From an uncultured Candidatus Saccharibacteria bacterium (GTDB taxonomy: Bacteria; Patescibacteriota; WWE3; 2-01-FULL-39-13), in the NCBI GenBank assembly GCA_965230915.1, contig OZ246395.1:858431-922430 (forward strand): DNA of 64,000 nt. The letters run 5' to 3'. The notes beneath the pieces are model-generated. The model saw only the letters and a list, made by a program, of their open reading frames with translations, did no database searches and was not told the origin of the DNA. The position numbers were made by a program, and so were the translations under genes. This document shows positions 8,485-63,091 of this stretch, in pieces (within the stretch, counting starts at the first letter, position 1; every line of letters starts with the position of its first letter).

Positions 8485-8525
8485 ATTTTTTGTTGTATTG
8501 CAGGCTTCTTTCTATATTTAACACA

Positions 8526-16787: not shown

Positions 16788-17865
16788 GAATAATTTTTAT
16801 GATGATGGCCCGGACTTCGGCCCAGATTCACTTGTAAATGAAATAAATTCTTTGGCACATAAATATTATCCCGCCGAAAACCCAAGCGAAATTCCTGAAA
16901 ATAACTTCACTCATCTGACTAGAAATATATACATTCAAGCCGGAGTTCCAGTCTTGGCTTTAACTTACTTAATGTTATTTAGCAATTCGCAAAACACGAG
17001 TGCTCAAAGCACTGTTGAAATTCATGTGGAACCCTCAACAATTGCGAATGCTGCGTGCTATCCGGATGAACTAGAATTCCAAATTACAAATGTAAATGAA
17101 GATAATGCTCCCGGAACAATTTGGGTCAGCTGGAACGACGAAACTTTACAAATTGAAATCTTTGCAGTAGATCAAAACGGTACTGCAATATATCACGTTA
17201 CTGATCCCGACTTGCTCGATGGAATATTGGAAGACTCATGGACAGAAATATTTGCACAATGGATAGGACAATTTGTAGTCAAAGGGTGTGCCACTCCAAC
17301 ACCAACATTCACTGCAACCTCAACGGAAACTCCAACACAAACCTATACAGCTACGGCAACTGAAACATCTACCGAGATGGCTACTTCGACTTCCACGTCT
17401 ACATCTACAGCAACGGCTACTTCGACCTCGACCCCAACTTTTACTGAGACACCTAACCCAACAGCGACAGCAACAGATACGTCAACAGCGACCCAAACTC
17501 CTAGCCCAAGTACAACATCAACTCCCAGCACAACCTCAACGCCAATTCCAAGCTCGACTTCTACATCAACGGAGACTCCAACTGTAACTTCTACAAATAC
17601 ACCAAATGCTACGACAACAGAAACTCCAACTCAAACCTTTACCAGTACTCCATCACCGACACAAACACGCACCAATACCCCTACTAATACTCCTGTTGAA
17701 TTGGTAGAAACTAACACTCCTACTTTTACGCCAGATCCATCGCCTACAGCCCCAACCCATACTGGCTCCCCCACACCAACAGATATAACGCCAAAACCTA
17801 CGGCGACAATAGAACCGACAGCTACGAAACCTAAAATATATGCCCCTGAAATCGAAAAAAACTAG
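16780..17865 (+). CDS. Secreted/surface protein with a long Thr/Pro/Ser-rich mucin-like C-terminal linker (start placed at the ATG overlapping the upstream stop in ATGAGTGA)
   Basis: Hydrophobic N-terminal segment VPVLALTYLMLF; ~170-aa TPT/TST low-complexity tract (17290-17800). The track start at 16732 overlaps the upstream gene, and the internal ATG at 16780 gives a 4-8-nt overlap typical of coupled genes. Confidence 0.65.
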   Translation: MSENNFYDDGPDFGPDSLVNEINSLAHKYYPAENPSEIPENNFTHLTRNIYIQAGVPVLALTYLMLFSNSQNTSAQSTVEIHVEPSTIANAACYPDELEFQITNVNEDNAPGTIWVSWNDETLQIEIFAVDQNGTAIYHVTDPDLLDGILEDSWTEIFAQWIGQFVVKGCATPTPTFTATSTETPTQTYTATATETSTEMATSTSTSTSTATATSTSTPTFTETPNPTATATDTSTATQTPSPSTTSTPSTTSTPIPSSTSTSTETPTVTSTNTPNATTTETPTQTFTSTPSPTQTRTNTPTNTPVELVETNTPTFTPDPSPTAPTHTGSPTPTDITPKPTATIEPTATKPKIYAPEIEKN

Positions 17866-17942
17866 TTGAGGGAGAAAAGGTAGTTAATAACGCTTGATAA
17901 AGGATACTGGTTAAAGTGGTTAATCTGTGAAAATTATATGTC

Positions 17943-17982
17943 TCCGCGGGCTGGACGTTATCAGAACTGAGGTTTTAGAATT
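17943..17982. repeat. att-like direct repeat, copy 1: the 14-nt 3' end of tRNA-Asn (TCCGCGGGCTGGAC) plus 26 nt identical to copy 2. Left boundary of the tRNA-Asn island
   Basis: 40/40 identity with 18645-18684. The first 14-15 nt equal the 3' acceptor/T-arm end of the tRNA at 19228-19302. Confidence 0.85.
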
Positions 17983-17984
17983 TA

Positions 17985-18046
17985 TTGAAGTTGTTTCGAC
18001 TTGACCTTCCCAAATCTCATCAGACACTAAGTGTAACAACTTGCAA
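17985..18046 (-). ncRNA. Type III hammerhead ribozyme (HHR-1), immediately 3' of gene 18131..18532
   Basis: Minus-sense 5'-UUGCAAGUUGUU^ACAC-UUA-GUGU-CUGAUGA-GAUUUG-GGAAGGU-CAAGUC-GAAA-CAACUUCAA. Conserved CUGAUGA and GAAA cores. Stem I is 4 bp with a triloop, stem II 6 bp with loop GGAAGGU, stem III 7 bp including A15.1:U16.1. Cleavage triplet GUU. Two paralogs covary. Confidence 0.85.
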
Positions 18047-18130
18047 GAATAAAGTATGACTGAGATTTCGGTATTTGAAACCGATTGAAGTGTAGCGCTA
18101 GGCTAAACTCTATTAATCTCAAGCAATACT

Positions 18131-18532
18131 CTACCCTTGCCTCTTGTGTGCTACTTTAAACTTGACCATACCGGCGCTCGTCATGAGCATCCATGATCCT
18201 GGGATAAACTGCACCCAGCCGTCGATCTCAATCTCATCGCCACCATTCCCTCGGTAAACCGAAGCTATTATGTTCAGGACTTTATCCCTGAACTCATCAG
18301 CAACAGTTTCCACAACCTCGCCAGGATTCGTCTGAATCTCGACATACAAATGTGCCGCATCTGGATCCACACTCAAAATCTCTAATCCAAACGCATTCAC
18401 GATTATATCGTCACTTGGCAAGCCATAATCCGTACCCGCCATAACCTTTACTTCACGGCGAATTTTATCTGTGGAATCAATCAAAAATGTCTTAACTCCA
18501 AGATCCATAGCTAACAGTTTAATCAGTGGCAT
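18131..18532 (-). CDS. Hypothetical 133-aa protein, GC-richer cassette gene P1
   Basis: Own promoter (TTTAAA-17-TATAAT) and SD AAGGAG 9 nt before the ATG; followed by HHR-1. No recognisable domain. Confidence 0.7.
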   Translation of the reverse strand: MPLIKLLAMDLGVKTFLIDSTDKIRREVKVMAGTDYGLPSDDIIVNAFGLEILSVDPDAAHLYVEIQTNPGEVVETVADEFRDKVLNIIASVYRGNGGDEIEIDGWVQFIPGSWMLMTSAGMVKFKVAHKRQG

Positions 18533-18585
18533 GGCTTTCGACTCCTTTTGCCATTTCTAAAACATACCTATTCGGAATTAATAGG

Positions 18586-18623
18586 ATTGTGCATGATTAT
18601 ACTATAAATACAGGTCGATTTAA
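18586..18623 (-). promoter_or_regulatory. Sigma70-type promoter of cassette P1 (TTTAAA-17-TATAAT) with upstream CCCATAGTATTT motif
   Basis: rc of 18586-18591 is TATAAT, rc of 18609-18614 is TTTAAA, spacer 17. Motif CCCCATAGTATTT directly upstream, next to the att repeat. Confidence 0.6.
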
Positions 18624-18644
18624 ATACTATGGGGCATAAATGGG

Positions 18645-18684
18645 TCCGCGGGCTGGACGTTATCAGAACTGAGGTTTTAGAATT
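18645..18684. repeat. att-like direct repeat, copy 2 (identical 40 nt), separating cassettes P1 and P2
   Basis: TCCGCGGGCTGGACGTTATCAGAACTGAGGTTTTAGAATT is identical to 17943-17982, 703 bp away. Confidence 0.85.
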
Positions 18685-18694
18685 AGTTAATTGG

Positions 18695-18760
18695 AAATAA
18701 AAAAACCGCCTCATGATTTTGATTGTCGTAATGACTTTCGCGTCATAAAGCGGGTTAATC
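18695..18760 (-). terminator. Terminator-like structured region 3' of cassette gene P2 (nested hairpins, then UUUUUUUAUUU), where P1 has a hammerhead instead
   Basis: Minus-sense CCGCUUUAUGACGCGAAAGUCAUUACGAC...CAUGAGGCGGUUUUUUUAUUU; the inner AUGAC-GCGAAA-GUCAU hairpin sits inside a longer imperfect stem. Confidence 0.4.
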
Positions 18761-18785
18761 TAAACAGGTTAAGGGTTAGATTCCC

Positions 18786-19139
18786 TTACTTGAGGAGCTT
18801 TAGCTCAGATAGAGGGGGATATGCTGATCCCCAAAAGAAATACTTATCCGAAAATCCAGAACCACTCAATAGTAAGTAGCTAACCGAGGCCATAGGTGTC
18901 GAAGTAAATCGATATTGGTTCCTATCAATTTCCGTCAAGCCAACTCGCCCGTTTCCCCAGACCATAACGCCTGCTAACAGCTGAGGTAAGTATGTTTTCC
19001 GATGTTCTCCTAAATAGGAGTACACTGGGAACATCATTTGGATCAACTCTTCATCCGAGTTGCTAAATACAGGAATCCGCCCCTCTGCTAGAGTCTTTGC
19101 CCAACCACTTACGATAGCATTTAAATCGTCGGTGATCAT
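18786..19139 (-). CDS. Hypothetical 117-aa protein, cassette gene P2, first gene after tRNA-Asn
   Basis: ORF directly downstream of a consensus promoter abutting the tRNA; visibly higher G+C than flanks; no recognisable domain. Confidence 0.65.
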   Translation of the reverse strand: MITDDLNAIVSGWAKTLAEGRIPVFSNSDEELIQMMFPVYSYLGEHRKTYLPQLLAGVMVWGNGRVGLTEIDRNQYRFTSTPMASVSYLLLSGSGFSDKYFFWGSAYPPLSELKLLK

Positions 19140-19186
19140 TATGTCCTCTTTCTTTGTGGATGAACCTTCTAATGAGAATTTGTGAG

Positions 19187-19215
19187 ATTTTAACAGTTTA
19201 CGACAAGCCTGTCAA
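19187..19215 (-). promoter_or_regulatory. Consensus sigma70 promoter (TTGACA-17-TAAAAT) immediately 3' of tRNA-Asn, reading into P2
   Basis: rc of 19210-19215 is TTGACA, rc of 19187-19192 is TAAAAT, spacer 17. Preceded by CCTATAGTG. Confidence 0.65.
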
Positions 19216-19227
19216 CACTATAGGATA

Positions 19228-19302
19228 CGTGGCTCCGCGGGCTGGACTCGAACCAGCAACCTCGAAGTTAACAGCTTCTTGCTCCACCATTGAGCTACCG
19301 CG
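19228..19302 (-). tRNA. tRNA-Asn (anticodon GTT), CCA encoded
   Basis: rc gives TCCGCGG-TA-GCTC-AATGGTG-GAGC-A-AGAAG-CTGTTAA-CTTCG-AGGTT-GCTGG-TTCGAGT-CCAGC-CCGCGGA-G-CCA, a cloverleaf with 7-bp acceptor stem, U33 and anticodon GUU. Confidence 0.9.
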
Positions 19303-19319
19303 GAATATTGGTGCTGCAG

Positions 19320-28721: not shown

Positions 28722-28791
28722 AAATTTGAAGGTATAGCAGAAGACAAACTTAACATTGTATGCACAATGAAAGCTCGCCTTCTGCGTCAAC

Positions 28792-29613
28792 CTAGTTACT
28801 AAACAAGTATGGAATCAACAACTGTCGTTGTGGCGCGGGTTCATCCAAAAATCGGATTACTTTGGAGTTTCCAATTTTCAGAGAATAGATGTCGACTGCT
28901 TTATCGATCGTCATAGGAATACTTACAGCAGTCGCACCGCCGTCGGCGTTAAGCGCGAAGCCACTGATCAGATTTCCATTCTGCTCGATGCTCCAGCCGG
29001 AAACTTCTTGCGCAGTGAAATCTATTTCACCTGAGACCTTGAGTTCAAATGAAGTAAAAACTTTCGAATCTACGATCTCGATGAAATCACGATCGCCAAA
29101 ATACTGAGCGGTTGGCAGAATTCTGAATTCGCCGTCCTGCAGTTGAAAGTTAGGCTCTTTGCCTTTCCCAAACGAGAAATGGTTGAGGTCAATAAGGCCA
29201 ATCTGACCGGCTTCGCCTGTTACAGTGTATTGAACCGCAAACAAAATACGCGTTCCTTGGGCCGTAATGGTATAAGGATTATCGAACCTCAAATCAATCT
29301 GTGATGTACGCAGATTTTGATCGATAGACCCACCCGCAAATCCGAGTATAGATGCTGCAGTCATTGTTATATTACTGAACTGCAAAATCTTAGGATCTGC
29401 TCTCAAACCGACCTCAATATTAGTGACTTCGTAATCACTTATATCGGATGCGTAAATGGGAATGGTAACAAGCGTGCCTGGAGCACCCTTGAACGGACTA
29501 ACCGTGACGACAACGTCTGAAAGTTGGGCATTAACAATTGACCAACCTACAAGCATCGCAACTACTGCCAAAAGTAGCGGAATTACAAGCATAATCCAGC
29601 GGCGGATATACAT
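28792..29613 (-). CDS. Secreted hypothetical protein (signal peptide, beta-rich), islet gene B
   Basis: MYIRRWIMLVIPLLLAVVAMLVGWSIVNAQ signal; strong SD GGAGGA 7 nt before the ATG; upstream CCCATAGTTAT motif. Confidence 0.65.
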   Translation of the reverse strand: MYIRRWIMLVIPLLLAVVAMLVGWSIVNAQLSDVVVTVSPFKGAPGTLVTIPIYASDISDYEVTNIEVGLRADPKILQFSNITMTAASILGFAGGSIDQNLRTSQIDLRFDNPYTITAQGTRILFAVQYTVTGEAGQIGLIDLNHFSFGKGKEPNFQLQDGEFRILPTAQYFGDRDFIEIVDSKVFTSFELKVSGEIDFTAQEVSGWSIEQNGNLISGFALNADGGATAVSIPMTIDKAVDIYSLKIGNSKVIRFLDEPAPQRQLLIPYLFSN

Positions 29614-29854
29614 CGGGTTCCTCCATATATAAACAAAACCATCTCGGGGTAACTAGGTTATCAATGTTCTAACGAACAAGATAATTCTACATTTTTATAA
29701 GCGCTTTGGCTATAACTATGGGTTTCGTATTTAATTTTGATAATTGGGAAAAATTGAATTTTCCAGGACGTCACTAATTGTTTCTTTAAAGGCTTTTGGC
29801 CCTTCATTGCAATTGCAATGAGAAACATTTAGTGACGCCTGGTCTTGCACGAAC

Positions 29855-30478
29855 TTAGAGAGCTAACGTGACAAAGTCGTAGTTGGTTTTGCCAGCCTCA
29901 GAATATCCACTTTGGATATCTTTGGTGCCGGCTTTGACCACAAGGCGCTTCACAACATCGAACTCGACGACAGAGTCGCGAGTTTCGGTCTCGAGCGGAA
30001 GCTCGATCGTCACGATCTCACCGACCATGATGCGGCCGGAATAGGCGACTTGCTTCATGAACTTGCGCTGGCTTTCCTTCAGCAAGTAATACTTGCTGCC
30101 GCCATCGTCACGGTACTCTGACCATTCGGAATCCGGAATTAACGCTATTACACCTAGCTGAGTCTTCAAACGAGCGTCTTCCCAGCGGGCAGAACCGCCT
30201 TTCGGGAAATCAGCAAACACATGCCCAACGGGGCGCTGCGGCTTTACGTTATCCGGGTCGGCAACGATAATACCGACGCGCGTAAACGCTAGGTCGTAAG
30301 TCAAATCCCCCGTCGGAATATAGCACGGCAACATTTCGATGCGCCGGCGGCGATCTGCCTCCTCGTACATCTTAATTGTGACCGGCATAAGTTTCGGCTC
30401 GCCAGCTTTCACAGGCACAGTCAATTCGACGCCGACCAACAACTCTTCCTCAGTGTACATACGCATAAGACCTGTCAT
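29855..30478 (-). CDS. Hypothetical protein, GC-rich islet gene C (start at internal ATG MTGLMRMY)
   Basis: Promoter TTGGAA-16-TATAAT (-10 is rc of 30534-30539) lies inside the longer track ORF, so M20 is used with purine-rich RBS AGAAAGAGAGAC. Visibly GC-rich. Confidence 0.6.
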   Translation of the reverse strand: MTGLMRMYTEEELLVGVELTVPVKAGEPKLMPVTIKMYEEADRRRRIEMLPCYIPTGDLTYDLAFTRVGIIVADPDNVKPQRPVGHVFADFPKGGSARWEDARLKTQLGVIALIPDSEWSEYRDDGGSKYYLLKESQRKFMKQVAYSGRIMVGEIVTIELPLETETRDSVVEFDVVKRLVVKAGTKDIQSGYSEAGKTNYDFVTLAL

Positions 30479-30533
30479 TTTTGTCTCTCTTTCTATAGTG
30501 TGCAATATATCCTGCCTTTGCAAGAATGGCTGC

Positions 30534-30576
30534 ATTATACCTCATTTTAGGGGATTTTCCAAATACTATGGGATGG
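30534..30576 (-). promoter_or_regulatory. Promoter of islet gene C: CCATCCCATAGTATT-TTGGAAAATCC-...-TATAAT-GCAGCC, sharing TTGGAAAATCC and GCAGC with the tRNA-Asn promoter
   Basis: Direct comparison with 19320-19348 (minus sense). Confidence 0.55.
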
Positions 30577-30652
30577 AACCAGGGGAATATTAGCCTGTAA
30601 CAGCGCAATTGCTGCACCATCGGCTCCAGGCATATGTTGTAATAAAAATTAT

Positions 30653-31855
30653 CTACAAATCCTCAATAGCTGAAACCTCGATATTTAAACCCCTAGAGGC
30701 GACCATACTTTTTGCTTCATCAATTCTATCTTTTGGTACAAAAATAATTCGAATCCCTTCGATCGGAACACCATCTTTTAAACAAATCTCAGATTTATAG
30801 TCACTCTGTGGAATAATAACTTCAGAGGTAATTCCAGAATATTCTCCGGTAGTTTTATCTTGCTGTCTCCAGCTAACATCGCTGCCTGTCTGGATATCAG
30901 CCCCCACAAAATATAAAACAGGAAAGCTTTCTCTGATAAGCTGTTCGTGTTCTTTTTCTTTGTCATTTTTATCCGGTTTTTGTAAAAAAGCTAAGGTGTC
31001 TTGTAAATCTCTGATTTTTATTTGTATCGACTCGTAAAAAACATTTTCTTCACCCATTTTTTGTGCGCGTTCAGTAAACTCTCTTAAATCCCTTCTAATT
31101 GATTCTTCTGAAACACCCCCGTCACCTCTTTTAGCATATCCTACTGCATCTTTATAGTCATTCAACTTAGCTAAACTTATGTATTTATTATTTAAATTTG
31201 CACTCCCAAAAACGCCTTCCCCGGAAGCGATCGGCATTTTGTCACGAAGAAATTCTTGAGGCCTTAAACCATGATCAAGAACACCTTGTAATGATGCGCT
31301 GGTTGAACCATGCGCGCCAAAAACCCCATTTTCAAAGATGGATAAAGCTAAGTCTGGGTTATCAGCATACAACTCTGCATATAGCTGGCGATCTTCAAGA
31401 AAATCTGTATAGTTCCATTTACCTAATCTTTCTTCAGGGCTTACAGAACGGCCCAATAATTCGCCATCAAAGACAATTTTATTTATAGCTTCCAGTCTTC
31501 TTCTTTTCTCTTCTTCATTAATCGGTAAATATTCAAGTTTAGCCAAACAACTTTGATAAGAATTAAATAAATTTTGATAACCCCAACCAGCAATGAACTG
31601 GTCAACTTCTGAAAGATTGCTCATAAACTCATCTTTTAGGCCTTCTTCGTCTGGCTGTTCTGTTGATTGTGGAACTTCTTGAGGTTGTGGCTTTTGCTCT
31701 TGGGTTATCGAATAGATACCACTATGGGTATTAATTAGGTTTGGATTAATACTAAAATAGCCCTTTTCATCGCCGGCTTGATCGGACAATTTAAATTCTT
31801 CAGGTGTAGGATCATTTATGCCTTCTATAGCATAAATCGAGTCTGAGCTTGGCAT
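30653..31855 (-). CDS. Hypothetical 400-aa protein abutting the left att repeat of the tRNA-Arg island
   Basis: Long ORF, AT-rich like the host; no recognisable motifs; ATG 27 nt downstream (minus sense) of the att fragment, with no SD. Confidence 0.65.
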   Translation of the reverse strand: MPSSDSIYAIEGINDPTPEEFKLSDQAGDEKGYFSINPNLINTHSGIYSITQEQKPQPQEVPQSTEQPDEEGLKDEFMSNLSEVDQFIAGWGYQNLFNSYQSCLAKLEYLPINEEEKRRRLEAINKIVFDGELLGRSVSPEERLGKWNYTDFLEDRQLYAELYADNPDLALSIFENGVFGAHGSTSASLQGVLDHGLRPQEFLRDKMPIASGEGVFGSANLNNKYISLAKLNDYKDAVGYAKRGDGGVSEESIRRDLREFTERAQKMGEENVFYESIQIKIRDLQDTLAFLQKPDKNDKEKEHEQLIRESFPVLYFVGADIQTGSDVSWRQQDKTTGEYSGITSEVIIPQSDYKSEICLKDGVPIEGIRIIFVPKDRIDEAKSMVASRGLNIEVSAIEDL

Positions 31856-31881
31856 TACTTAAATAATATCATTAGAAGTTA

Positions 31882-31894
31882 TGGTGCACCCAAG
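31882..31894. repeat. att-like direct repeat: 13-nt copy of the tRNA-Arg 3' end (TGGTGCACCCAAG); left boundary of the tRNA-Arg island
   Basis: Identical to 34142-34154 (the 3' end of the tRNA at 34142-34218). Confidence 0.7.
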
Positions 31895-31944
31895 TGATGT
31901 TAATTGGAATCGGGTTTTTGAATTTATATTGAAATTTTAGGAAA

Positions 31945-31998
31945 GTAGTTTCGACTTGATCTTCCCAAGTCTCATCAGGGACTATGTCCGACTAGAAC
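31945..31998 (-). ncRNA. Type III hammerhead ribozyme (HHR-2), 3' of gene 32105..32845
   Basis: Minus-sense 5'-GUUCUAGUC^GGAC-AUA-GUCC-CUGAUGA-GACUUG-GGAAGAU-CAAGUC-GAAA-CUACU. Canonical GUC cleavage triplet. Stem I and II covary with HHR-1 and HHR-3. Confidence 0.85.
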
Positions 31999-32104
31999 AC
32001 CGGAAAGAGAGGTTGAAGAAAAAATTGCAACGATTACTCGCGCAGCTTCAACATCTTCCGATGTTCGGTTGATCTACAAAATTCAAAATGAAATTCGCCG
32101 AAAA

Positions 32105-32845
32105 CTAGGCAGACTTCTCAATCCTCTTGAGTGCCAAAGCCTTCTGGCCAAATGGATTGACTTCCAACTGCTCATTATACTTGGGCAAGGCGTTTATTAG
32201 AGGCAAATGCTGATCCTCCATATATCCAAGCCCTATAAAACGATCCGCCAAAGCCTCATCGCGAAGATACATTCCCCGAGAATGAATCGCCTGCCTAAAC
32301 AGGGCAATATCATCATGACTGAGAGCTTCAACATCTGAATTCTCGAGGAGAAATCCCCACTTTTTAGCGAAACCTTGAAGGCCTTTTGCATCCATAGACG
32401 AAATCGCCTGATGTGAGTATTTAACTCTTAGGCCGGCCACGAAATCAGCGAATGGCATGTACCAAAACTCTTCAGTTCGTAAACGAACTTCTTCTGGTTC
32501 CCATTCATAACCTGTGGCAAAAATACCTAGAGCCACAACTCGATCATTCAGTTCTTCAGTCCACCCGCGGTGGCGGATAGTTTCGCGAAGATAAGGCGTG
32601 TCCTCGATCCCCGAAATATCTTCCTCCGTCACATCAAAGAGCCAACCCTGCAGGTACTGCAATAGGCTGACCTCCGTTGTTCCGAACATCATTAATCCGG
32701 TCAGCCCACCATTGGCAGAGTGCGCCTTGTTCGTTGGCCGAGCAGGTATACTGGGAACTGCTTCCTGTGCGACTTGCTCTTCGACCTTTGAAAAAGGAAA
32801 CAAATTAACAACAAACGATACGAAGGTGTTGATAATGTTTTGCAT
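32105..32845 (-). CDS. Hypothetical 246-aa protein, GC-rich cassette gene P3
   Basis: SD AGGAGA 10 nt before the ATG; followed by HHR-2. Confidence 0.7.
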   Translation of the reverse strand: MQNIINTFVSFVVNLFPFSKVEEQVAQEAVPSIPARPTNKAHSANGGLTGLMMFGTTEVSLLQYLQGWLFDVTEEDISGIEDTPYLRETIRHRGWTEELNDRVVALGIFATGYEWEPEEVRLRTEEFWYMPFADFVAGLRVKYSHQAISSMDAKGLQGFAKKWGFLLENSDVEALSHDDIALFRQAIHSRGMYLRDEALADRFIGLGYMEDQHLPLINALPKYNEQLEVNPFGQKALALKRIEKSA

Positions 32846-32881
32846 GGTAGAAGTTTCTCCTGCTTACTGAAAGTTTTTATA

Positions 32882-32925
32882 TTGCTCGAAGTAACTTTCG
32901 ATTACTCAAAAACTAATTCGAGCAA
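32882..32925. repeat. Inverted repeat TTGCTCGAA-(26 nt)-TTCGAGCAA between cassettes P4 and P3
   Basis: Perfect 9-bp arms read directly; lies between HHR-3 and the P3 start. Confidence 0.45.
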
Positions 32926-32953
32926 TATATTTGTAGATCAATTTTTAATGTAC

Positions 32954-33010
32954 AAAACTGTTTTCGATCTGAGCTTCCCAGATCTCATCAGGCGCTATGC
33001 GCGAACAGCG
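32954..33010 (-). ncRNA. Type III hammerhead ribozyme (HHR-3), ~270 nt 3' of gene 33281..33838
   Basis: Minus-sense 5'-CGCUGUUC^GCGC-AUA-GCGC-CUGAUGA-GAUCUG-GGAAGCU-CAGAUC-GAAA-ACAGUUUU. Stem I GCGC/GCGC and stem II GAUCUG/CAGAUC; both covary against the paralogs. Confidence 0.85.
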
Positions 33011-33280
33011 GGCAAAAGTGAAGCGGAAAGCAAAAGATTAGATAATGATCGAAATGATCATCAAATTCTCATGCTTTAAAAACATGCTTCACTGCCCGTC
33101 TGGCAAACTTTGAAACGAATCCAATGTAGAATTCCCTGAGCTAGTATTTGACACTTTAAGCTATTCCTAGGTAAGTATCTTTCGATCTTACACACTATCA
33201 ATAGCGCCGTACCTTGCGGTCTTGGCAGTCTTGAGCTTTTCATCGGGCTCGTGTTGGATTTACAAACTTCTTACTACCAC

Positions 33281-33838
33281 CTACTTGGGTTCGTATATCC
33301 ACTCGATGTGGTCGAATACGAATGGGCGCGGCGCTTCAACAGAGACGATGGCTTTTAGGCCAGCCTCTTCGATTTTCGCCTTTGGATTGGCGAAGGAGAT
33401 GATCTCCTGCAAAGCGCTTTCCCTCGTCCCATCACGGCCTTCCTGGTGATACCAGACAGGAATTTCCTTCGTCTGAGGACCACTCGGCATAGCCGAAGGA
33501 ACAGAAACCACGACACCCATCCGCGGAAGCGGAACTAGATCTCTCGCGAAATCAGCGGAGGTAAAACCTTCCCATGGAAGTCGTACTAAATCCTTCACAC
33601 CTTCCTGCCAAACCACTACTTTCAGTAGTGCCGATGCCAACGGCGCCGGTACATTCTGAAACAACAAAACTGCATCCTTCTCGACAGCCTTTTTTGCCAA
33701 ATCCAAAAGGACTGGCTTTGTCTCCTCGCCCGTTGCGGGGAAGGTGACATTGATGGTTTCGACAACCTCAACTTGGAGTGTGCCGAAGTCTGGGGCGTGC
33801 CGACCAATAACAATAGCGCGAATCGTTGCATTTTGCAT
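33281..33838 (-). CDS. Hypothetical 185-aa protein, GC-rich cassette gene P4
   Basis: RBS GAAAGGG; ~250-nt leader from a consensus promoter next to tRNA-Arg; followed by HHR-3. Confidence 0.7.
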   Translation of the reverse strand: MQNATIRAIVIGRHAPDFGTLQVEVVETINVTFPATGEETKPVLLDLAKKAVEKDAVLLFQNVPAPLASALLKVVVWQEGVKDLVRLPWEGFTSADFARDLVPLPRMGVVVSVPSAMPSGPQTKEIPVWYHQEGRDGTRESALQEIISFANPKAKIEEAGLKAIVSVEAPRPFVFDHIEWIYEPK

Positions 33839-34095
33839 GGTGCTTTCAACCCTTTCAAGATTGAAACTTACATCAGTTTCTAAGCTCCCATTGGAGTTAG
33901 CTTCAGATCACCTGAAGAAACAACCTACGTTTTTCCATCGTAAGCTGATTCCTCAGGCAATCTTCAATTAGTTTGCCAAATTTTTAATGTACTTTTTGAG
34001 ACTTTTTGTGGGGTATAGCCTTTAGGGCCTTGCCGTTAAAAAAGCTCAGAAATCAATGGACTTTTTGATATCCGAACCTTTCAACTTAATGGCTA

Positions 34096-34124
34096 CATTA
34101 TATTACGAAAAGGCTAGCCTGTCA
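34096..34124 (-). promoter_or_regulatory. Perfect consensus sigma70 promoter (TTGACA-17-TATAAT) immediately 3' of tRNA-Arg, reading into the island
   Basis: rc of 34119-34124 is TTGACA, rc of 34096-34101 is TATAAT; preceded by CCTATAGTA. Confidence 0.7.
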
Positions 34125-34141
34125 ATACTATAGGCTAGTGT

Positions 34142-34218
34142 GGTGCACCCAAGAGGATTCGAACCTCTGGCCTCAACTTCCGCAAAGTTGCGCTCTATCC
34201 AGCTGAGCTATGGGTGCT
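34142..34218 (-). tRNA. tRNA-Arg (anticodon GCG), CCA encoded
   Basis: rc gives GCACCCA-TA-GCTC-AGCTGGATA-GAGC-G-CAACT-TTGCGGA-AGTTG-AGGCC-AGAGG-TTCGAAT-CCTCT-TGGGTGC-A-CCA. Arg-type D and T arms; anticodon loop UUGCGGA. Confidence 0.85.
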
Positions 34219-50831: not shown

Positions 50832-50919
50832 CCAATAGAAATTTCCAATAAGTCATTTATAATTACGCCAAGCTAGGTACAAGTTTTGCTTTTACTTCTA
50901 AAGAAAGGAGGAAACGCCT

Positions 50920-51141
50920 TTGAGACTGACAGCGGTGCGCAATCCAATAGATCAAACGGCGAAGTTTGATCGAGTAGTTTTGCCAATCCGTCCAGGCCAA
51001 ATCGGCATTGGGCGAGATCGTTGGTTTCTTGACCCAGAGACCGGAGAGTATGTTTTTATCTCTGGGGAAGAGCTTCCAACGGTTACTGCAATTCCTGAAG
51101 TAACACCGTTCACTCCAGGTTATATTGTTCGTGTGTTTTAA
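50920..51141 (+). CDS. Small (73-aa) GC-rich hypothetical protein with TTG start and perfect SD
   Basis: AAAGGAGG 9 nt upstream of the TTG; G+C visibly above flanks; followed by hairpin 51247-51289. Confidence 0.55.
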   Translation: MRLTAVRNPIDQTAKFDRVVLPIRPGQIGIGRDRWFLDPETGEYVFISGEELPTVTAIPEVTPFTPGYIVRVF

Positions 51142-51246
51142 ATTAGCTGGGCTACGACGACCTTAGCAAAAAGGACTAGTCGAGCCTAATCTGGAAACGA
51201 GTTTGAAGTGTGAAGACTTTGTGTTGTACCTATTACCTAGCCAACA

Positions 51247-51289
51247 GGGCTGGAATTTATTGATGATTTTTATCAAGAAATTCCAGCCC
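51247..51289. terminator. Perfect 12-bp inverted repeat GGGCTGGAATTT...AAATTCCAGCCC between convergent genes (bidirectional terminator-like)
   Basis: Read directly; no clear U-tract on either strand. Confidence 0.45.
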
Positions 51290-51298
51290 GAGATTTAC

Positions 51299-57988: not shown

Positions 57989-58528
57989 TTATGTAAGAGT
58001 GCGTACTTCGTCGATCGATTTATTATATTTTTCAGAATATAAGACGGTTATACCTTTTAGCGATCGTTCTTCCCAATTAAGGCCAAGTTCTTGAACCAGA
58101 TTTTTTATGTCTTCTTCCGATTCAGATTTAGATTCGACCTCGACATAAGTTTCCATAAAAGGGCGAGTATCAATCATTATATAGACATTTCCTTTTTGCC
58201 AAGTTTCACGTAACGATTCTTGAGTTGAAGTTAAATTTAATCCGGAGTTTTTTAAGATATTTACTGTGTCGTCAAAATTACTGACTTCGACCTCGGTTTC
58301 GTCAGGAAAACCATCTGCATTTGGAACGCCCTTGTGAGTCAACATTATCTTTCCAAATTCCTTTCGAACACGTGTATTTCGACCTTTCATTTGAGGATTG
58401 GTACTTTGGTGAAAAACACAGCGTACCATTTTGAATTCTTCATGAACTAATTCAGCTCCAATTTCTTTTAGCTTTTCGCGGATTTCATCTTTATTTATAT
58501 TTAGGAATTTGTATTCGACTTCAATCAT
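57989..58528 (-). CDS. CYTH-domain protein (CyaB/thiamine triphosphatase-like)
   Basis: N-terminal EVEYKF motif and size. Confidence 0.7.
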   Translation of the reverse strand: MIEVEYKFLNINKDEIREKLKEIGAELVHEEFKMVRCVFHQSTNPQMKGRNTRVRKEFGKIMLTHKGVPNADGFPDETEVEVSNFDDTVNILKNSGLNLTSTQESLRETWQKGNVYIMIDTRPFMETYVEVESKSESEEDIKNLVQELGLNWEERSLKGITVLYSEKYNKSIDEVRTLT

Positions 58529-58638
58529 GGCTCGATTTTATATTAAATATTAATGTAATAAAGGTGTTAAAGTTTAAGGATTTATTAAGATAAATTTTTT
58601 CAACGGTTGTAATCAAAGTCTCTCATCGTTCTAAAATA

Positions 58639-59562
58639 CTAAACACCTGCTGCGTCTAGCATAAATTGTGGAATCTCCCTAGATTTATTTGTTGCTTTAG
58701 AATACTCGTCAATCCAATTTATACCGTCATCGTCTCGGGGATCAAATTTATTTTCAGATTTTTTATATACACCACTTTTGACATTATCTTCTATAATAAA
58801 TGGCAACGACTCAAGCTCTCTTCCTAACTTTTCATCGTAAGAATAAGGCTGAGAATAAAAATAGATTAGTAATGCGGTTGCTAAGTCACATCGGGGATCC
58901 TTTACAATATACTCAAGGTTTTCTAAACCGTCATCCCAATTGTATTTTTTTGCATAATTAAATAAGACCTTATGGTCATCTAGTTTTTTATCTAGTGTTT
59001 TATTTACCTTTTGTGGGATTTTATCTGCTAATTCTTTTAAGTACTTAACGTAATTTGAAAGCCACTCTTCAAAACTTTCGGCAATTTTAACCGGAGGAAT
59101 TTTTGCGGTGCCAGGATTTCCACGAATGTAATCTTTCATATAAAATACTTTTCCAGATGTTAGATTTAACAATAGATATTTATCCTGACGTGTACCGGTA
59201 TTTTCATCTACGACACACATAGCAAAAAGCACATAATCGTTTTTCTGAATCCAATCTATATCTTTATTCTCACGCTTGAGAATTTTTGAGTGAAGTAATG
59301 AAAAATGAGCGTCCAGAAAGCCAAACCATTCCGCTCTTTCAAAAACAGGGCCTTGTGGAATATTTAGGCCGTGTAGATACCTAACCGTACCCCATTCCAT
59401 AAAACTTTTAATTTCGTCCAGAATTTCAACATCCAAACTTGCCCATAATTCATCAAGATCTGAGAGCTTTTCGACTCTCAAATTCGCATTATTTTCTCTA
59501 TAGTATTTATTTAGTTTACTAAATAATTTATCAAGCTGGGAAGTGTAAATTGATGTATCCAT
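58639..59562 (-). CDS. Hypothetical 307-aa protein
   Basis: Clean ORF, no motifs recognised. Confidence 0.55.
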   Translation of the reverse strand: MDTSIYTSQLDKLFSKLNKYYRENNANLRVEKLSDLDELWASLDVEILDEIKSFMEWGTVRYLHGLNIPQGPVFERAEWFGFLDAHFSLLHSKILKRENKDIDWIQKNDYVLFAMCVVDENTGTRQDKYLLLNLTSGKVFYMKDYIRGNPGTAKIPPVKIAESFEEWLSNYVKYLKELADKIPQKVNKTLDKKLDDHKVLFNYAKKYNWDDGLENLEYIVKDPRCDLATALLIYFYSQPYSYDEKLGRELESLPFIIEDNVKSGVYKKSENKFDPRDDDGINWIDEYSKATNKSREIPQFMLDAAGV

Positions 59563-59576
59563 AATCGGATTATATA

Positions 59577-60668
59577 TTAATTATGAAGTTCTATCATGGT
59601 TGACTTATCCTTAATATCTTGTGGAACCATATTAATATCAGCGGTAGTAATAAGAGTTTGTCGGTTTTCTAAAATCGTCTTGACCGCCGCACGATACTCT
59701 TCATCTAACTCAGAAAAAATATCGTCTAGTAATAATATAGGATTTTCGCCCGACTCTTCTTGAATATATTGAATTTCTAAAATTTTTAGCGCCAAAACTC
59801 CTGTGCGTTGCTGACCACGCGAACCGTATCCTTTTAAATCATAGTGATGTTTATTGTTCATAATAAAATCGTAATCATCGCGGTGCGGACCAATCTGGGT
59901 TGTTCCATAAAACAGTTCGCGCTGCTTTATGCCTCGTAATCGTCCTTCGTTTAGTTCACTTTTTAAATATATAAGTGACAGAAAAGCATCTTTATATAAT
60001 TGACTGCTTATTTTTTCTAAATGTGTCTCGGCAAAAGCGAAAAATTTGTTACGGTAATTTTGTACAACCTGACCTGAATCTAATAATTGTGTGTCCCAAA
60101 TATCAAATTGAGCTTGGTGCAATTCTTTTAAAATCTGCCCTTTAATACTTTCAAGAAATTTGTTGCGTTGCTTTAGAACACGATTGTATTTACTCAAACT
60201 AACACGATATTCACGATGAACCTGCGATAATATTCGGTCTAAATAATCGCGCCGGCGCGACGGAGACCCGGCAACTAAACGAATATCTTCAGGTGCAAAC
60301 ATTACGCTTTTAATTCGGCCAACAAAATCAGTTGAAGTTTTTTGAGCGTTATTAATTCTATAAATTTTTTGAACACGTCGGCTTTCAGATTTGCGCGCAA
60401 TAACCACTTCCAATTTATCGTTTTCGTCGGTGTATCCAATTACTCTGGCGATTTGAGAATCTAAGTTTATTAACTCTTGTTCTAAACTTGCGCGCGGAGA
60501 TTTTCCGGTACTCAAAACCATTACCGATTCTAAAATATTGGTTTTGCCTACTCCATTTGACCCAACAATCACAGTCGTCCCATTTGGAAATTCAAAACTG
60601 GCATTTGGATAATTTCTAAAATTGGCGAATTCAACTTTTGAGATTTGCATATAGTAAGTCTTTTTCAT
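59577..60668 (-). CDS. recF: DNA replication/repair protein RecF (true start possibly MQISK at ~60650)
   Basis: Walker A GSNGVGKTNILES; conserved SMC-like C-terminal LLLDDIFSELD. Confidence 0.9.
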   Translation of the reverse strand: MKKTYYMQISKVEFANFRNYPNASFEFPNGTTVIVGSNGVGKTNILESVMVLSTGKSPRASLEQELINLDSQIARVIGYTDENDKLEVVIARKSESRRVQKIYRINNAQKTSTDFVGRIKSVMFAPEDIRLVAGSPSRRRDYLDRILSQVHREYRVSLSKYNRVLKQRNKFLESIKGQILKELHQAQFDIWDTQLLDSGQVVQNYRNKFFAFAETHLEKISSQLYKDAFLSLIYLKSELNEGRLRGIKQRELFYGTTQIGPHRDDYDFIMNNKHHYDLKGYGSRGQQRTGVLALKILEIQYIQEESGENPILLLDDIFSELDEEYRAAVKTILENRQTLITTADINMVPQDIKDKSTMIELHN

Positions 60669-60727
60669 ATTAAGGCTTTAAATTAGAAAAAACTACTGAG
60701 CATTTTTATCTTTTTAGATCTATAATA

Positions 60728-61051
60728 ATGGCAAGAATCGTTTTGTATCAAACCATTAGAATAAGAGGCAAACGTATGTTACCAGTAGATCTATCCGTAG
60801 AAGATATAACCATACGGGTATTATCAGGACAAACAAAGTTGATCCATTTCGGACGCACCACGCACGAAGGCGAGGCAGCGATACTTTTAACTTTCTGCCC
60901 TGAGAGCAAATATGAGAAGAGCAGTTTTATTGTGCAAGGGACGAAAGTCTTCAACCTAAGCGGTAAAAAACCTGGGTTTGTAATGGGGTTTCTCACAAAA
61001 ACAGGTTCCCATGTAACAATAGAACCAGCAAAAGCTCCAAACATAAATTAG
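60728..61051 (+). CDS. Small hypothetical protein (107 aa), first gene of GC-richer islet; probably leaderless
   Basis: TATAAT at 60716-60721 lies only 6 nt before the ATG. The overlapping antisense ORF 60748..61044 cannot be excluded. Confidence 0.4.
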   Translation: MARIVLYQTIRIRGKRMLPVDLSVEDITIRVLSGQTKLIHFGRTTHEGEAAILLTFCPESKYEKSSFIVQGTKVFNLSGKKPGFVMGFLTKTGSHVTIEPAKAPNIN

Positions 61052-61223
61052 CCTTTGGCAATTGCCGCAGGCTAAGGTTTTATAACTCCGACGGGAACGT
61101 GGAAGCTAGAATGGCTCGCCATTCTACCCTGAAATCTTGCTTCCACAGTTTTACCCACTTTTACCTATAGTTATTGTATAATTTTGCCACGCTAAGATTC
61201 GCACACTGAAAGGAGCCTTTATA

Positions 61224-61529
61224 ATGATCCTAAGACTTGAGGTTGAACTGCTCGTTGTTGAATTCAATCCAGATAAAATTGGCCTACCTCGAATATGGTC
61301 CGGATACCGTCCAGATATCTGGACAAGCAACCAAAATCCAAGTGCCGCCAGGCTATCTTGGCGCTGGGGACACAAAGACAGATGGGGAGCGATTGTTGAG
61401 ATTGCAAACGACAGGGTCCTTTTCATAGACCAAAGTCACAGACGCATAAGAATACTGACTAAAGACAATGTCGACATCACTCCTCCAAGTACACCCGCAG
61501 AAAAACGGGCTCGCCAACAAGGCCCATAG
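61224..61529 (+). CDS. Small hypothetical protein (101 aa), GC-rich islet
   Basis: Promoter CCTATAGTTATTGTATAAT (TGnTATAAT-like) and SD GAAAGGAG 9 nt before the ATG. Confidence 0.6.
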   Translation: MILRLEVELLVVEFNPDKIGLPRIWSGYRPDIWTSNQNPSAARLSWRWGHKDRWGAIVEIANDRVLFIDQSHRRIRILTKDNVDITPPSTPAEKRARQQGP

Positions 61530-61618
61530 TGTATTGACCCGCTTAATATAATGTTGTATATTAACGCCAAGTTTTAGGCAGTTAATCGAGTTTTTAGGCT
61601 TAGAAAGGCGATTTAGCC

Positions 61619-61837
61619 ATGTTTGGTAAAAAGAATAGTAAGGGAACCACAAGTTCCCATGTGGAGAAGAACAGCATTTGTCCAAAAAACCCTGGGAATC
61701 CCCAAGGAAGCCATATCTTTGGCGACGGCGTACCAGAGACTCATGACAACACCGCGGTCTATGTGTTCACCTGCGAAAACTGCGGGGGAACGTACACGGA
61801 ACACGCACAGGTTCGGCCTGATCCGAATACGGTATAG
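61619..61837 (+). CDS. Small hypothetical protein (72 aa) with CxxC pair, GC-rich islet
   Basis: ...FTCENCGG...; terminator hairpin immediately downstream favours this frame over the overlapping 61623..61922. Confidence 0.5.
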   Translation: MFGKKNSKGTTSSHVEKNSICPKNPGNPQGSHIFGDGVPETHDNTAVYVFTCENCGGTYTEHAQVRPDPNTV

Positions 61838-61858
61838 AGTTTATCTCTGTACCAAAAG

Positions 61859-61896
61859 CCGGAGTGCTAATCTCAAAAAGATTCAGCACTCCGGCC
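61859..61896 (+). terminator. Long hairpin terminator after the 72-aa gene
   Basis: GCCGGAGTGCTAATC-tcaaaaa-GATTCAGCACTCCGGC, ~15-bp stem with one bulge, then CTAACTTTAAATTCTT. Confidence 0.55.
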
Positions 61897-61984
61897 TAAC
61901 TTTAAATTCTTCGAATTTATAATATAATACTGCAAGGTTATAGGTCTTATTGAGCGAAATGCATTTAGAAAGGGTAGGCTTACA

Positions 61985-62329
61985 GTGCAAAATACAAACA
62001 AACCGTTGTTGAGCATGCGTATTGGCAGAAACTTCGTAATCGTATGGGAAGCTGCCATGGGGCAACCTACCATATGGCCCATGGTTGCACAGTACGAAGA
62101 CGGAACTGTAAAATCTGCTATAAATTTTGTCTGGTCGGTAGACCTAGAGGCCGCCAGTATCAACTTAGCATCTGTTACGTTTCACGAAGACGAAATCGTC
62201 TCGTTCGATGAAGAAGGGATCGGTCGTATCTGGATATATACCGAAGAAATCGAGGATGTAACTCCTACGACCCAGATTCGTTCCTATTCTGACCTCAAAG
62301 GCCAGGATTTCTCGTATCTTTCGTCGTAA
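61985..62329 (+). CDS. Small hypothetical protein (114 aa, GTG start), GC-rich islet
   Basis: RBS AAGGG ~10 nt before the GTG; canonical terminator follows. Confidence 0.55.
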   Translation: MQNTNKPLLSMRIGRNFVIVWEAAMGQPTIWPMVAQYEDGTVKSAINFVWSVDLEAASINLASVTFHEDEIVSFDEEGIGRIWIYTEEIEDVTPTTQIRSYSDLKGQDFSYLSS

Positions 62330-62351
62330 CAAAGGAAAGGTTAAGACCCTT

Positions 62352-62396
62352 GGAAGTCTGAATGGTTAACGCCACAAATTCAGACTTCCGTTTTTT
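62352..62396 (+). terminator. Canonical rho-independent terminator
   Basis: GGAAGTCTGAAT-(14 nt)-ATTCAGACTTCC followed by GTTTTTT. Confidence 0.8.
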
Positions 62397-62434
62397 AAAA
62401 CTCATAACTTAAATCTTCTGTTAAAATCAAAATA

Positions 62435-63091
62435 ATGATAACCAGAGACGAAAAGTCTGCGGCACTTGAAAAAATCGCAGCACAGGTTAGAATATGTGAG
62501 AAATGCAGGTTATGTAAGACCGCTACTAATGGAGTCCCCGGAGAAGGAAATCCCTATTCAGAGATTATATTTGTTGGAGAAGCACCAGGTGCCAACGAAG
62601 ACCAACAGGGTAGACCATTCGTAGGAAGAGCAGGAATGCTGTTAGAATTCATGCTCAATCAAATTGGATATAAAAGAGAAGACGTTTGGATAGGGAATAT
62701 TGTTAAGCATCGTCCACCAGAAAACAGAGATCCCCTTCCCGATGAAATCGAGGCTTGTAAGCCTTATCTGACAAATCAGATAGAAATAATTTCTCCTAAA
62801 TTAATCGTTACTCTAGGTAGATTTTCGATGAATTATTTTTTGCCAGACGCCAAAATCACACAGGCACATGGTCAACCTTACAATCTTGGGAACTTCTATA
62901 TTTATCCCGTTTATCACCCTGCAGCAGGACTTAGAAATCCGCAAATGAAGACTACTTTAATTGCCGATTTTCTAAAAATACCTGAAGTCTTAAAAGAAAT
63001 TAGTCTTAAAAAAACTCATTTGGCGGAAGAAAAGATTGCGCAGAATATTCCACCAAAGAATGAAAAAGACACACAAGTAAAATTAATTTAG
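62435..63091 (+). CDS. Uracil-DNA glycosylase, family 4
   Basis: [23 protein letters not shown] motif A and C-terminal HPAAGLRN region. Confidence 0.85.

Follow-up and report, generated by a model that had tools for sequence, protein, structure and literature searches.

In a 945-kb genome of the Saccharibacteria (TM7), of which we analyzed a stretch of 64 kb (referred to below as the window), the core genes recF and udg are separated by an islet of four small plus-strand genes, g1 to g4 (window positions 60669–62434), which are missing at this position in the relatives compared. On balance, we favor the view that the recF–udg gap is a permissive, lineage-variable slot in which moron-like, horizontally acquired accessory genes have accreted. 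Pfam scans identified the left flank as a gene for a RecF/SMC_N protein on the minus strand (59577–60668) and the right flank as a gene for a family-4-type UDG on the plus strand (62435–63091), while RecF-anchored scans placed the organism in the Saccharibacteria; the islet sequence is 100% identical in two Logan assemblies, i.e. in copies from two samples. The four plus-strand open reading frames (ORFs) that a first-pass annotation of this DNA had called at 60728–61051, 61224–61529, 61619–61837 and 61985–62329 are present, as are the alternative frames that it listed at 60748–61044 (minus strand) and 61623–61922 (plus strand). As predicted from these ORFs and their signals, the islet would consist of four tandem, co-oriented and self-contained units, each made of a sigma-70-type promoter, a leader of ~35–50 nt with a Shine–Dalgarno (SD) motif and an ORFan of 72–114 aa, with a hairpin after g1, g3 and g4.

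The variability of the slot is apparent from the comparison with three relatives, whose RecF proteins are 77% (L004, of which L020 is a short copy), 49% (L005) and 44% (L006) identical to that of the genome under study. In all three, udg and recF are directly adjacent and divergent, and alaS comes directly after recF; RNase J is found on the far side of udg in L005 and L006; the L004 contig is too short to extend that far. The recF–udg gap measures ~730 bp in L004, ~420 bp in L005 and ~270 bp in L006, and the small ORFs that it contains are other, unrelated ones: two Cys-rich ORFs of 39 and 76 aa in L004, a membrane peptide of ~46 aa in L005 and a small ORF with a hydrophobic stretch at its start in L006. 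Since the relatives lack g1–g4 at the recF–udg position, these are not core genes; the same four genes with a host-like composition, which the first-pass annotation had named as the mark of core genes, were not found in the gaps compared. A metagenome scan with RecF returned a single close relative, the contig of which is too short to reach the gap.

In a DNA alignment, this genome and L004 match at two places only, the start of recF and the stretch leading from a terminator hairpin into udg. This intrinsic terminator, located 3′ of g4 (62352–62396), consists of a perfect 12-bp stem (62352–62389) followed by GTTTTTT; it is kept in L004, where two pairs of the stem have undergone compensatory changes (G-C vs A-T, T-A vs C-G), so that its structure is conserved. 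Judging from this alignment, it is the right edge of the variable slot and would insulate udg. On the other side, recF probably starts at ATG 60650 (MQISKVEF), by comparison with the start of the L004 RecF (MQITKLEF), and the spacer between recF and g1 (60651–60727) has the layout of a divergent promoter region: TATAAT at 60721–60726 points toward g1, and the minus strand reads TATTAT toward recF.

A second line of evidence comes from the translation starts. Taking as SD-like any SD-like 4-mer located at positions −18 to −7 relative to the start, such a motif precedes 4/4 islet genes and 5/6 cassette genes of the two tRNA-linked islands described below, versus 2 of the 31 confident window genes that we used as the core set (Fisher p = 1.5e-6); the background chance of finding the motif at a random islet position is 0.19. 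In 13 of these 31 core genes, a −10-like hexamer ends 5–9 nt before the start codon, which suggests that leaderless mRNAs are widespread in this Saccharibacteria lineage. The L005 and L006 loci, which are also from Saccharibacteria, are likewise SD-poor and −10-proximal, and the reverse is seen in the three control loci, which come from other bacterial groups. Thus, since the islet is SD-led and the core SD-poor, the translation-initiation mode of the islet is foreign to the core genome, and we infer that the SD-led starts add to the compositional evidence for the import of the islet genes. In these reduced epibiont genomes, such starts could offer an inexpensive means of recognizing recent gene imports from sequence, and the contrast hints that the donors, be they phages, plasmids or other bacteria, initiate translation differently. 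Note that a literature search found nothing on leaderless genes or hammerheads in Saccharibacteria.

The composition of the islet points in the same direction. Measured over segments of 300 nt, its G+C content is 0.41–0.47 between 60750 and 62400, compared to 0.32–0.39 in recF and 0.34–0.40 in udg; gene by gene, it amounts to 0.41 (g1), 0.48 (g2), 0.50 (g3) and 0.46 (g4), compared to 0.36 for recF and 0.38 for udg, in agreement with the first-pass description of a G+C-richer islet (0.41–0.50). The islet is also dense in ORFs: when those of 60 aa or more are counted, plus-strand coverage is 72%, versus 14% ± 12% in shuffled sequences, and each strand carries four ORFs of at least 90 aa, versus 0.16 expected from the shuffles. 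Because none of 500 dinucleotide-preserving shuffles attained the coverage or the ORF count (0/500), this density is not due to chance.

These figures bear on a rival explanation that we regard as unlikely, namely that the islet is non-functional, decaying or largely non-coding DNA, left behind by an old insertion or produced by expansion of the spacer. Some or all of its ORFs (g3 and g1 above all) would then go untranslated, and only the promoters and hairpins would matter, for instance as small RNAs or as insulation between recF and udg. The weak codon scores of g1–g3, the very low confidence of the structural models and the failure to find homologues (see below) speak for this view, as do the long ORFs also held by the minus strand and the fact that NCBI does not call g3. 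Independent gene callers nonetheless predict all four genes between them, g3 being predicted by one pipeline only, and g2 and g4 display the GC1 > GC2 pattern of coding sequences, with a positive codon score for g4, the best of the four; the poorest is that of g3. Besides the ORF coverage, which far exceeds that of the shuffles, and the correctly spaced SD found before 4/4 starts, the distribution of RNA structure argues against non-coding DNA: folding z-scores are unremarkable over the ORF bodies and strongly negative only in the spacers (61000–61180, 61780–61960 and 62320–62440), as expected from protein genes with 3′ hairpins rather than from one large structured RNA. A scan of 60500–62600 against Rfam at E up to 10 yielded no ribozyme, no tRNA-like match and no family, which, together with the confinement of structure to the spacers, led us to reject the large structured RNA. 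The first-pass statement that the islet lacks hammerheads and att-type repeats stands.

The minus-strand ORFs raise the question of the coding strand. Four of them, of 91–110 aa, tile the islet in order (62163–61873, 61685–61353, 61426–61151 and 61044–60748), co-directionally with recF and with an ORF coverage of 70%, and the T-run of the hairpin that follows g3 lies on this strand; they could therefore be read as the remains of one gene that lay upstream of recF and was broken by frameshifts (a dnaN-like pseudogene, for instance), which would make antisense artefacts of the plus-strand ORFs. We consider this highly improbable. None of the nine ORFs tested (0/9) matches Pfam at E < 0.1, a tblastx comparison with the remainder of the window and with every fetched locus found nothing, and the ORFs display the GC2 > GC1 pattern of non-coding sequence together with lower codon scores, so that a broken gene upstream of recF is not supported; moreover, two of the four start with TTG, and the relatives have no gene at this position. 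As to a replication origin, DnaA boxes do not cluster in the islet, which contains only one copy of TTATCCACA with one mismatch, the count over the window (23 vs 18.3 expected) is at the chance level, and the islet is G+C-richer rather than AT-rich; this candidate was rejected.

The first-pass claim that each gene has its own promoter and SD holds, a −10 box and an SD being found for all four genes, for g1 by way of ATG 60776; the SD motifs stand 7–10 nt 5′ of the start (8–10 nt for g2, g3 and g4). The −10 box of g1 is the TATAAT at 60721–60726, and three starts compete: ATG 60728 (107 aa, NCBI call), TTG 60743 (102 aa, Logan call) and ATG 60776 (60776–61051, 91 aa, pI 8.9), which is preceded at 7 nt by the candidate SD AAGAGG (60763–60768). 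The first-pass annotation took g1 to be leaderless, with TATAAT 6 nt before ATG 60728; the actual gap is 1 nt, compared to 5–9 nt in the leaderless-like core genes of the window. Since TATAAT ends 1 nt before it, a leaderless start at 60728 is unlikely, and on the basis of these signals translation more likely begins at 60776. A hairpin overlapping the g1 stop codon (61048–61075, −15.5 kcal/mol, z = −2.7) and followed by GGUUUUAU / GGTTTTAT is the probable g1 terminator. Further 3′ comes a second long hairpin (61093–61152; −25.6 kcal/mol, z = −4.9), in which 61099–61110 pairs with 61135–61146 around an inner stem (61107–61126) and which is followed by AGTTTTA; it has no Rfam match and may represent either a terminator in tandem or what is left, at the 3′ end, of a unit since lost.

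The g2 promoter (61164–61189) combines CCTATAGT (61164–61171), the extended −10 box TGTATAAT (61175–61182) and, after three nucleotides, GCCA (61186–61189). The gene itself (61224–61529) is preceded by the SD GAAAGGAG (61208–61215) and encodes a basic ORFan (101 aa, pI 10.1) with five Trp residues; no hairpin lies 3′ of it. Its stop codon, TAG, is contained in the CCCATAGT element (61523–61530) that opens the g3 unit, the promoter of which (61523–61569) continues with TTGACC (61534–61539), a 17-nt spacer, TATATT (61557–61562) and, again after three nucleotides, GCCA (61566–61569). With the SD GAAAGG (61603–61608), g3 (61619–61837) encodes a product of 72 aa carrying Cys21, a CxxC motif (residues 52–55) and several His; it matches Zn_ribbon_8 at E = 0.035, below the cut-off, and is possibly a small zinc-ribbon-like protein. 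It is overlapped at +1 by the 99-aa plus-strand frame 61623–61922, and g3 is the least certain reading frame of the four. Two hairpins follow (61831–61895), one at 61831–61853 and the other, of 16 bp with one bulged base, at 61858–61895; the fold of 61825–61925, which holds the latter, reaches −41.8 kcal/mol (z = −10). Of the two strong terminators announced by the first-pass annotation, the one after g4 is there, with its perfect 12-bp stem and GUUUUUU tail, whereas the g3 hairpin lacks a U-tract on the plus strand and carries a TTTT run on the minus strand, so that 61858–61895 is not a classic plus-strand terminator. Finally, g4 (61985–62329) is preceded by a TTTAAA-16-TATAAT promoter (61901–61928) and the SD GAAAGGG (61968–61974); it encodes an acidic ORFan (114 aa, pI 4.2) from a GTG start, the alternative start ATG 62015 giving 104 aa.

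The products of these genes are orphans. For g1 and g2, the query itself was the sole match among 5.8 billion clustered proteins. An exhaustive HMMER search with g4 over all 1.84 billion representatives returned g4 itself and repeat proteins; the latter were judged spurious, being a short motif match summed over many repeats. For g3, family, PDB and phage searches gave nothing, and no billion-scale protein search was made. In keeping with the first-pass statement that the four proteins have no recognizable domains, nothing credible was found in Pfam, PHROG, PADLOC and NCBIfam: PHROG gave no matches at E < 0.01 for g1–g4, and a search of PADLOC-DB 2.0 at E up to 1 assigned none of the four proteins to a family. 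A PHROG ‘polymerase’ match (E = 6e-4) was discounted, as it concerns the part of the alternative frame 61623–61922 that translates the hairpins. Sequence searches of the PDB gave nothing credible for the islet proteins, a match of g4 to a Roco leucine-rich repeat being spurious (28 residues only). The structure prediction proposed by the first-pass annotation was carried out for g2 and g4; the AlphaFold2 single-sequence models have pLDDT values of 46 and 41, respectively, and their Foldseek matches in the PDB (E > 0.1, TM ≤ 0.31) are unusable. No paralogy is detectable among the four genes or with other ORFans of the window after allowing for 55 pairwise tests; the resemblance of g2 to g4 (P = 0.013) and that of g3 to the L004 zinc-ribbon ORF of 39 aa (P = 0.016) are no longer significant once the number of pairs is corrected for.

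Neither a signal peptide nor a membrane segment is evident in the four sequences, which were read by eye, and the proteins appear small, soluble and cytoplasmic. Our guess, made with low confidence, is that they take part in conflicts involving mobile elements and not in housekeeping. The first-pass annotation listed an addiction, defence or host-interaction locus among the candidates; no result speaks for any of these three roles. Accessory islets often carry toxin–antitoxin or defence systems, and a toxin–antitoxin, addiction or anti-phage defence mini-locus would fit the small size of the genes, the presence of a basic protein (g2) and an acidic one (g4) and the variable character of the region. 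We nevertheless deem it improbable, given that PADLOC, Pfam, NCBIfam and PHROG provide no match, that no nuclease, kinase or membrane domain was found, that structural support is lacking, and that g2 and g4 are non-adjacent genes with separate promoters rather than an operon-like pair.

Two short signatures connect the islet with the islands located next to the only two tRNA genes of the window (19230–19304 and 34141–34217). The motif CCYATAGT occurs 11 times in the window (2.1 expected), and seven of these 11 copies lie just 5′ of the promoter of a G+C-rich gene, in the same orientation: five in the tRNA-Asn and tRNA-Arg islands, the others at g2 and g3, where the number of chance copies on the islet plus strand, estimated from the counts, is ~0.03. 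The distance between the end of the motif and the −10 box is 24–27 nt in the five island promoters and in the promoter of the L004 gap, and 26 nt at g3. TATAWT-N3-GCCA occurs five times (0.45 expected), in front of two tRNA-Arg island genes, g2 and g3 and at 50858. In addition, the L004 gap opens with CCCATAGTATTGACAG, which is nearly identical to the tRNA-Arg island promoter of this window, and in the tRNA islands CCYATAGT lies 5–10 nt after the tRNA 3′ end or its repeat. The promoter motif that the first-pass annotation described as shared with the tRNA islands is therefore found as short signatures at g2 and g3, and not as a full-length profile (see below). It is through these two signatures that the islet is linked with the hammerhead-bearing tRNA islands, themselves more unusual than the islet.

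The tRNA-Asn island (17900–19304, minus strand) comprises two G+C-rich single-gene cassettes (19139–18786 and 18532–18131) downstream of the tRNA. A repeat of the tRNA-Asn 3′ end, tccagcccgcgga, preceded by ttctaaaacctcagttctgataacg, is found after the first gene (~18640–18680) and after the second (~17940–17975), and a hammerhead-like core (ctgatgag...cgaaac) lies near 17990–18025; the whole looks like a tandem integration of tiny elements. It adjoins an ORF of 377 aa (16732–17865) with a long Thr/Ser/Pro-rich tail (TPT/STS repeats) and no Pfam match. The tRNA-Arg island (28790–34217, minus strand) contains the cassettes 33838–33281 and 32845–32105, each followed by a hammerhead-like core; with Rfam Hammerhead_3, the core at 31943–31997 reaches 28.3 bits (E = 0.018), which is short of the gathering score. 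The tRNA-Arg 3′ end is repeated near 31895 (cttgggtgcacca), ahead of a low-G+C gene of 400 aa, and two further units have a CCCATAGT promoter (30478–29855 and 29613–28792, the latter with a weak cohesin match). No family could be assigned to the proteins of the tRNA-Arg island. A solitary unit resembling those of the islet lies at 50845–51290, between a DUF4349 gene and ruvX; it displays TATAAT-N3-GCCA at 50858, the SD GAAAGGAGG, a 73-aa ORF starting with TTG (50920–51141) and a hairpin (51248–51289). We also noted a palindrome, GCAATTGC, with seven copies in the window (1.6 expected) at 24485, 29809, 30605, 39649, 51342, 55259 and 61058. It is not island-specific: two copies form the tips of post-gene hairpins (61058 in the islet and 29809 in an island), and the others lie in ordinary genes.

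Could the islet, the 50.85–51.29 kb unit and the tRNA-Asn and tRNA-Arg islands then belong to one undescribed cassette system of the Saccharibacteria? In such a system, a recombinase whose gene lies elsewhere would move short, promoter-bearing and SD-led ORFan cassettes with CCYATAGT at their 5′ edge. Their targets would be tRNA 3′ ends, where they come with hammerhead ribozymes, as well as secondary sites between genes, the recF–udg gap being one of these. The islet would accordingly be an array of new mobile cassettes, brought by site-specific recombination at or near CCYATAGT to a secondary, non-tRNA site of the tRNA-linked elements. Several features are in line with this idea: (i) the enrichment of CCYATAGT at the 5′ edge of seven G+C-rich units and its position just past the tRNA 3′ end or repeat in the tRNA islands; (ii) the inclusion of the g2 stop codon in the CCCATAGT that opens g3; (iii) the presence of different genes behind the same motif in the L004 gap; and (iv) the long hairpins that close most units. 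We nonetheless find both the single system and a cassette array in the gap doubtful. The islet lacks att repeats, a hammerhead and a target duplication, the motif is missing at g1 and g4, the window ORFs scanned yielded no recombinase and no islet gene was met in any other context; furthermore, given its fixed distance from the −10 box, CCYATAGT is no less readily explained as a promoter element than as a crossover site. Were such a mobile system real, strains would best be compared at the recF–udg gap, the simplest and most clearly delimited of its insertion sites; taken alone, the islet is of limited weight, as a strain- or species-specific patch of hypothetical genes.

The accretion of accessory genes, which we prefer, may be pictured as follows. 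The units would stem from the same foreign gene pool as the tRNA-Asn and tRNA-Arg cassettes and the solitary 50.85–51.29 kb unit, and would have accreted between two divergently transcribed core genes, where insertions are presumably harmless. Each would be transcribed from its own promoter, and its translation would start by SD pairing, in a genome whose core genes seem mostly leaderless or SD-less, while the conserved intrinsic terminator would block read-through into udg. What the data show is the layout of the islet, its absence in the relatives, the orphan character of its products and the difference in SD and promoter signals from the core genes; that the genes came by horizontal transfer, are expressed and serve some function is inferred.

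Several results weigh against this scenario. No donor lineage emerges, and viral contigs and phage and plasmid records do not match the islet, by protein or by DNA; a match of CCYATAGTRTTGACAGRC to four stretches of viral-contig DNA was judged to be at about the chance level. No att-type or boundary repeat, hammerhead or tRNA fragment in the islet marks its arrival, and no recombinase came out of Pfam scans covering the islet-flanking ORFs and ~45 of the window ORFs. The tie to the tRNA islands is itself uneven: at g2, CCYATAGT stands only 5 nt from the −10 box and is thus out of register, g1 and g4 have an SD and no CCYATAGT, and with a profile built from the full length of the island promoters, those of the islet obtain E values of 2.5 and 44, which is not significant. 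Composition is not a specific mark either: a giant protein gene, with a stop-free frame of at least 2837 aa (window 1–8511, minus strand) that runs off the left end of the window, has a G+C content of ~0.43, so that an elevated value (~0.44) is not exclusive to the islands. Lastly, the codon scores of g1–g3 are near zero or negative, scarcely above those of the antisense frames, and the searches brought up no homologue of the four proteins from which selection on the coding sequence could be read.

Two neighboring regions call for a comment. In L004, the gap (870–1457, minus strand of the locus) carries, behind the CCCATAGTATTGACAG promoter, the 39-aa ORF, with a Cys/His...CxxC arrangement, and the 76-aa ORF, with CxxC...CxxC; the 39-aa frame fits the SD less well than does an overlapping Arg-rich frame with a GTG start, which mirrors the ambiguity between g3 and its +1 frame. 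On the other side of recF, between recF and alaS, the window contains (57989–59562) a DUF4274 gene whose product weakly resembles SUKH-1 (immunity-protein-like) at its N-terminus, together with a gene similar to those of CYTH/class IV adenylate cyclases. Both are missing in the three relatives, where alaS follows recF; we kept them out of the islet because their G+C content and their leaderless-type starts are host-like.

How does the islet compare with known systems? Phage morons are autonomous promoter–gene–terminator units found between prophage genes, as recognized by comparing lambdoid phages. The islet units resemble them in having their own promoter and mostly their own terminator, in a composition unlike that of their neighbors, in their presence or absence between syntenic genomes and in encoding small hypothetical proteins; they differ in being flanked by the core genes recF and udg and in standing four in tandem, and there is no phage gene among the window ORFs scanned. 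Integron arrays come to mind because of the tandem, co-oriented and ORFan-rich units of ~350–500 bp with hairpins between most of them. Unlike integron cassettes, which are mostly promoterless and expressed from Pc, each islet gene has a −10 box in front of it; moreover, no intI-type integrase is found among the window ORFs scanned (the islet flanks and ~45 ORFs), and no attC-type sequence is shared, the hairpins of g1, g3 and g4 being unrelated in sequence and the lone GCCTAAC beside the g3 hairpin having no partner attC core (RYYYAAC/GTTRRRY). Type II toxin–antitoxin modules differ as well, the islet genes being separately promoted and without a recognizable toxin or antitoxin match.

Among tRNA-linked islands, the tycheposons of Prochlorococcus are presented in a preprint (bioRxiv 10.1101/2020.12.28.424599) as integrative islands with tandem cargo. 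With the tRNA islands of the present window, the islet shares G+C-richer SD-led ORFans, CCYATAGT, TATAWT-N3-GCCA and post-gene hairpins; in contrast to them, it does not lie beside a tRNA gene and has neither a tRNA 3′-end repeat nor a hammerhead-like core (CUGAUGA...GAAA). The full cassette signature (CCYATAGT 24–27 nt before the −10 box plus an SD) is seen at g3 only, g2 having the motif out of register and g1 and g4 the SD alone. The last comparison is with the hypervariable islets that lie between conserved core genes in streamlined genomes. The recF–udg islet is like these in its syntenic, conserved flanks, in a content that is replaced between relatives and in its short hypothetical genes; it is unlike them in the small size of the slot (1.8 kb) and in the expression signals proper to each gene, with SD-led starts unlike those of the core genome. 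In conclusion, the recF–udg islet is a small hypervariable islet of ORFan accessory genes, of a familiar kind: real, fairly ordinary and calling for no new mechanism.

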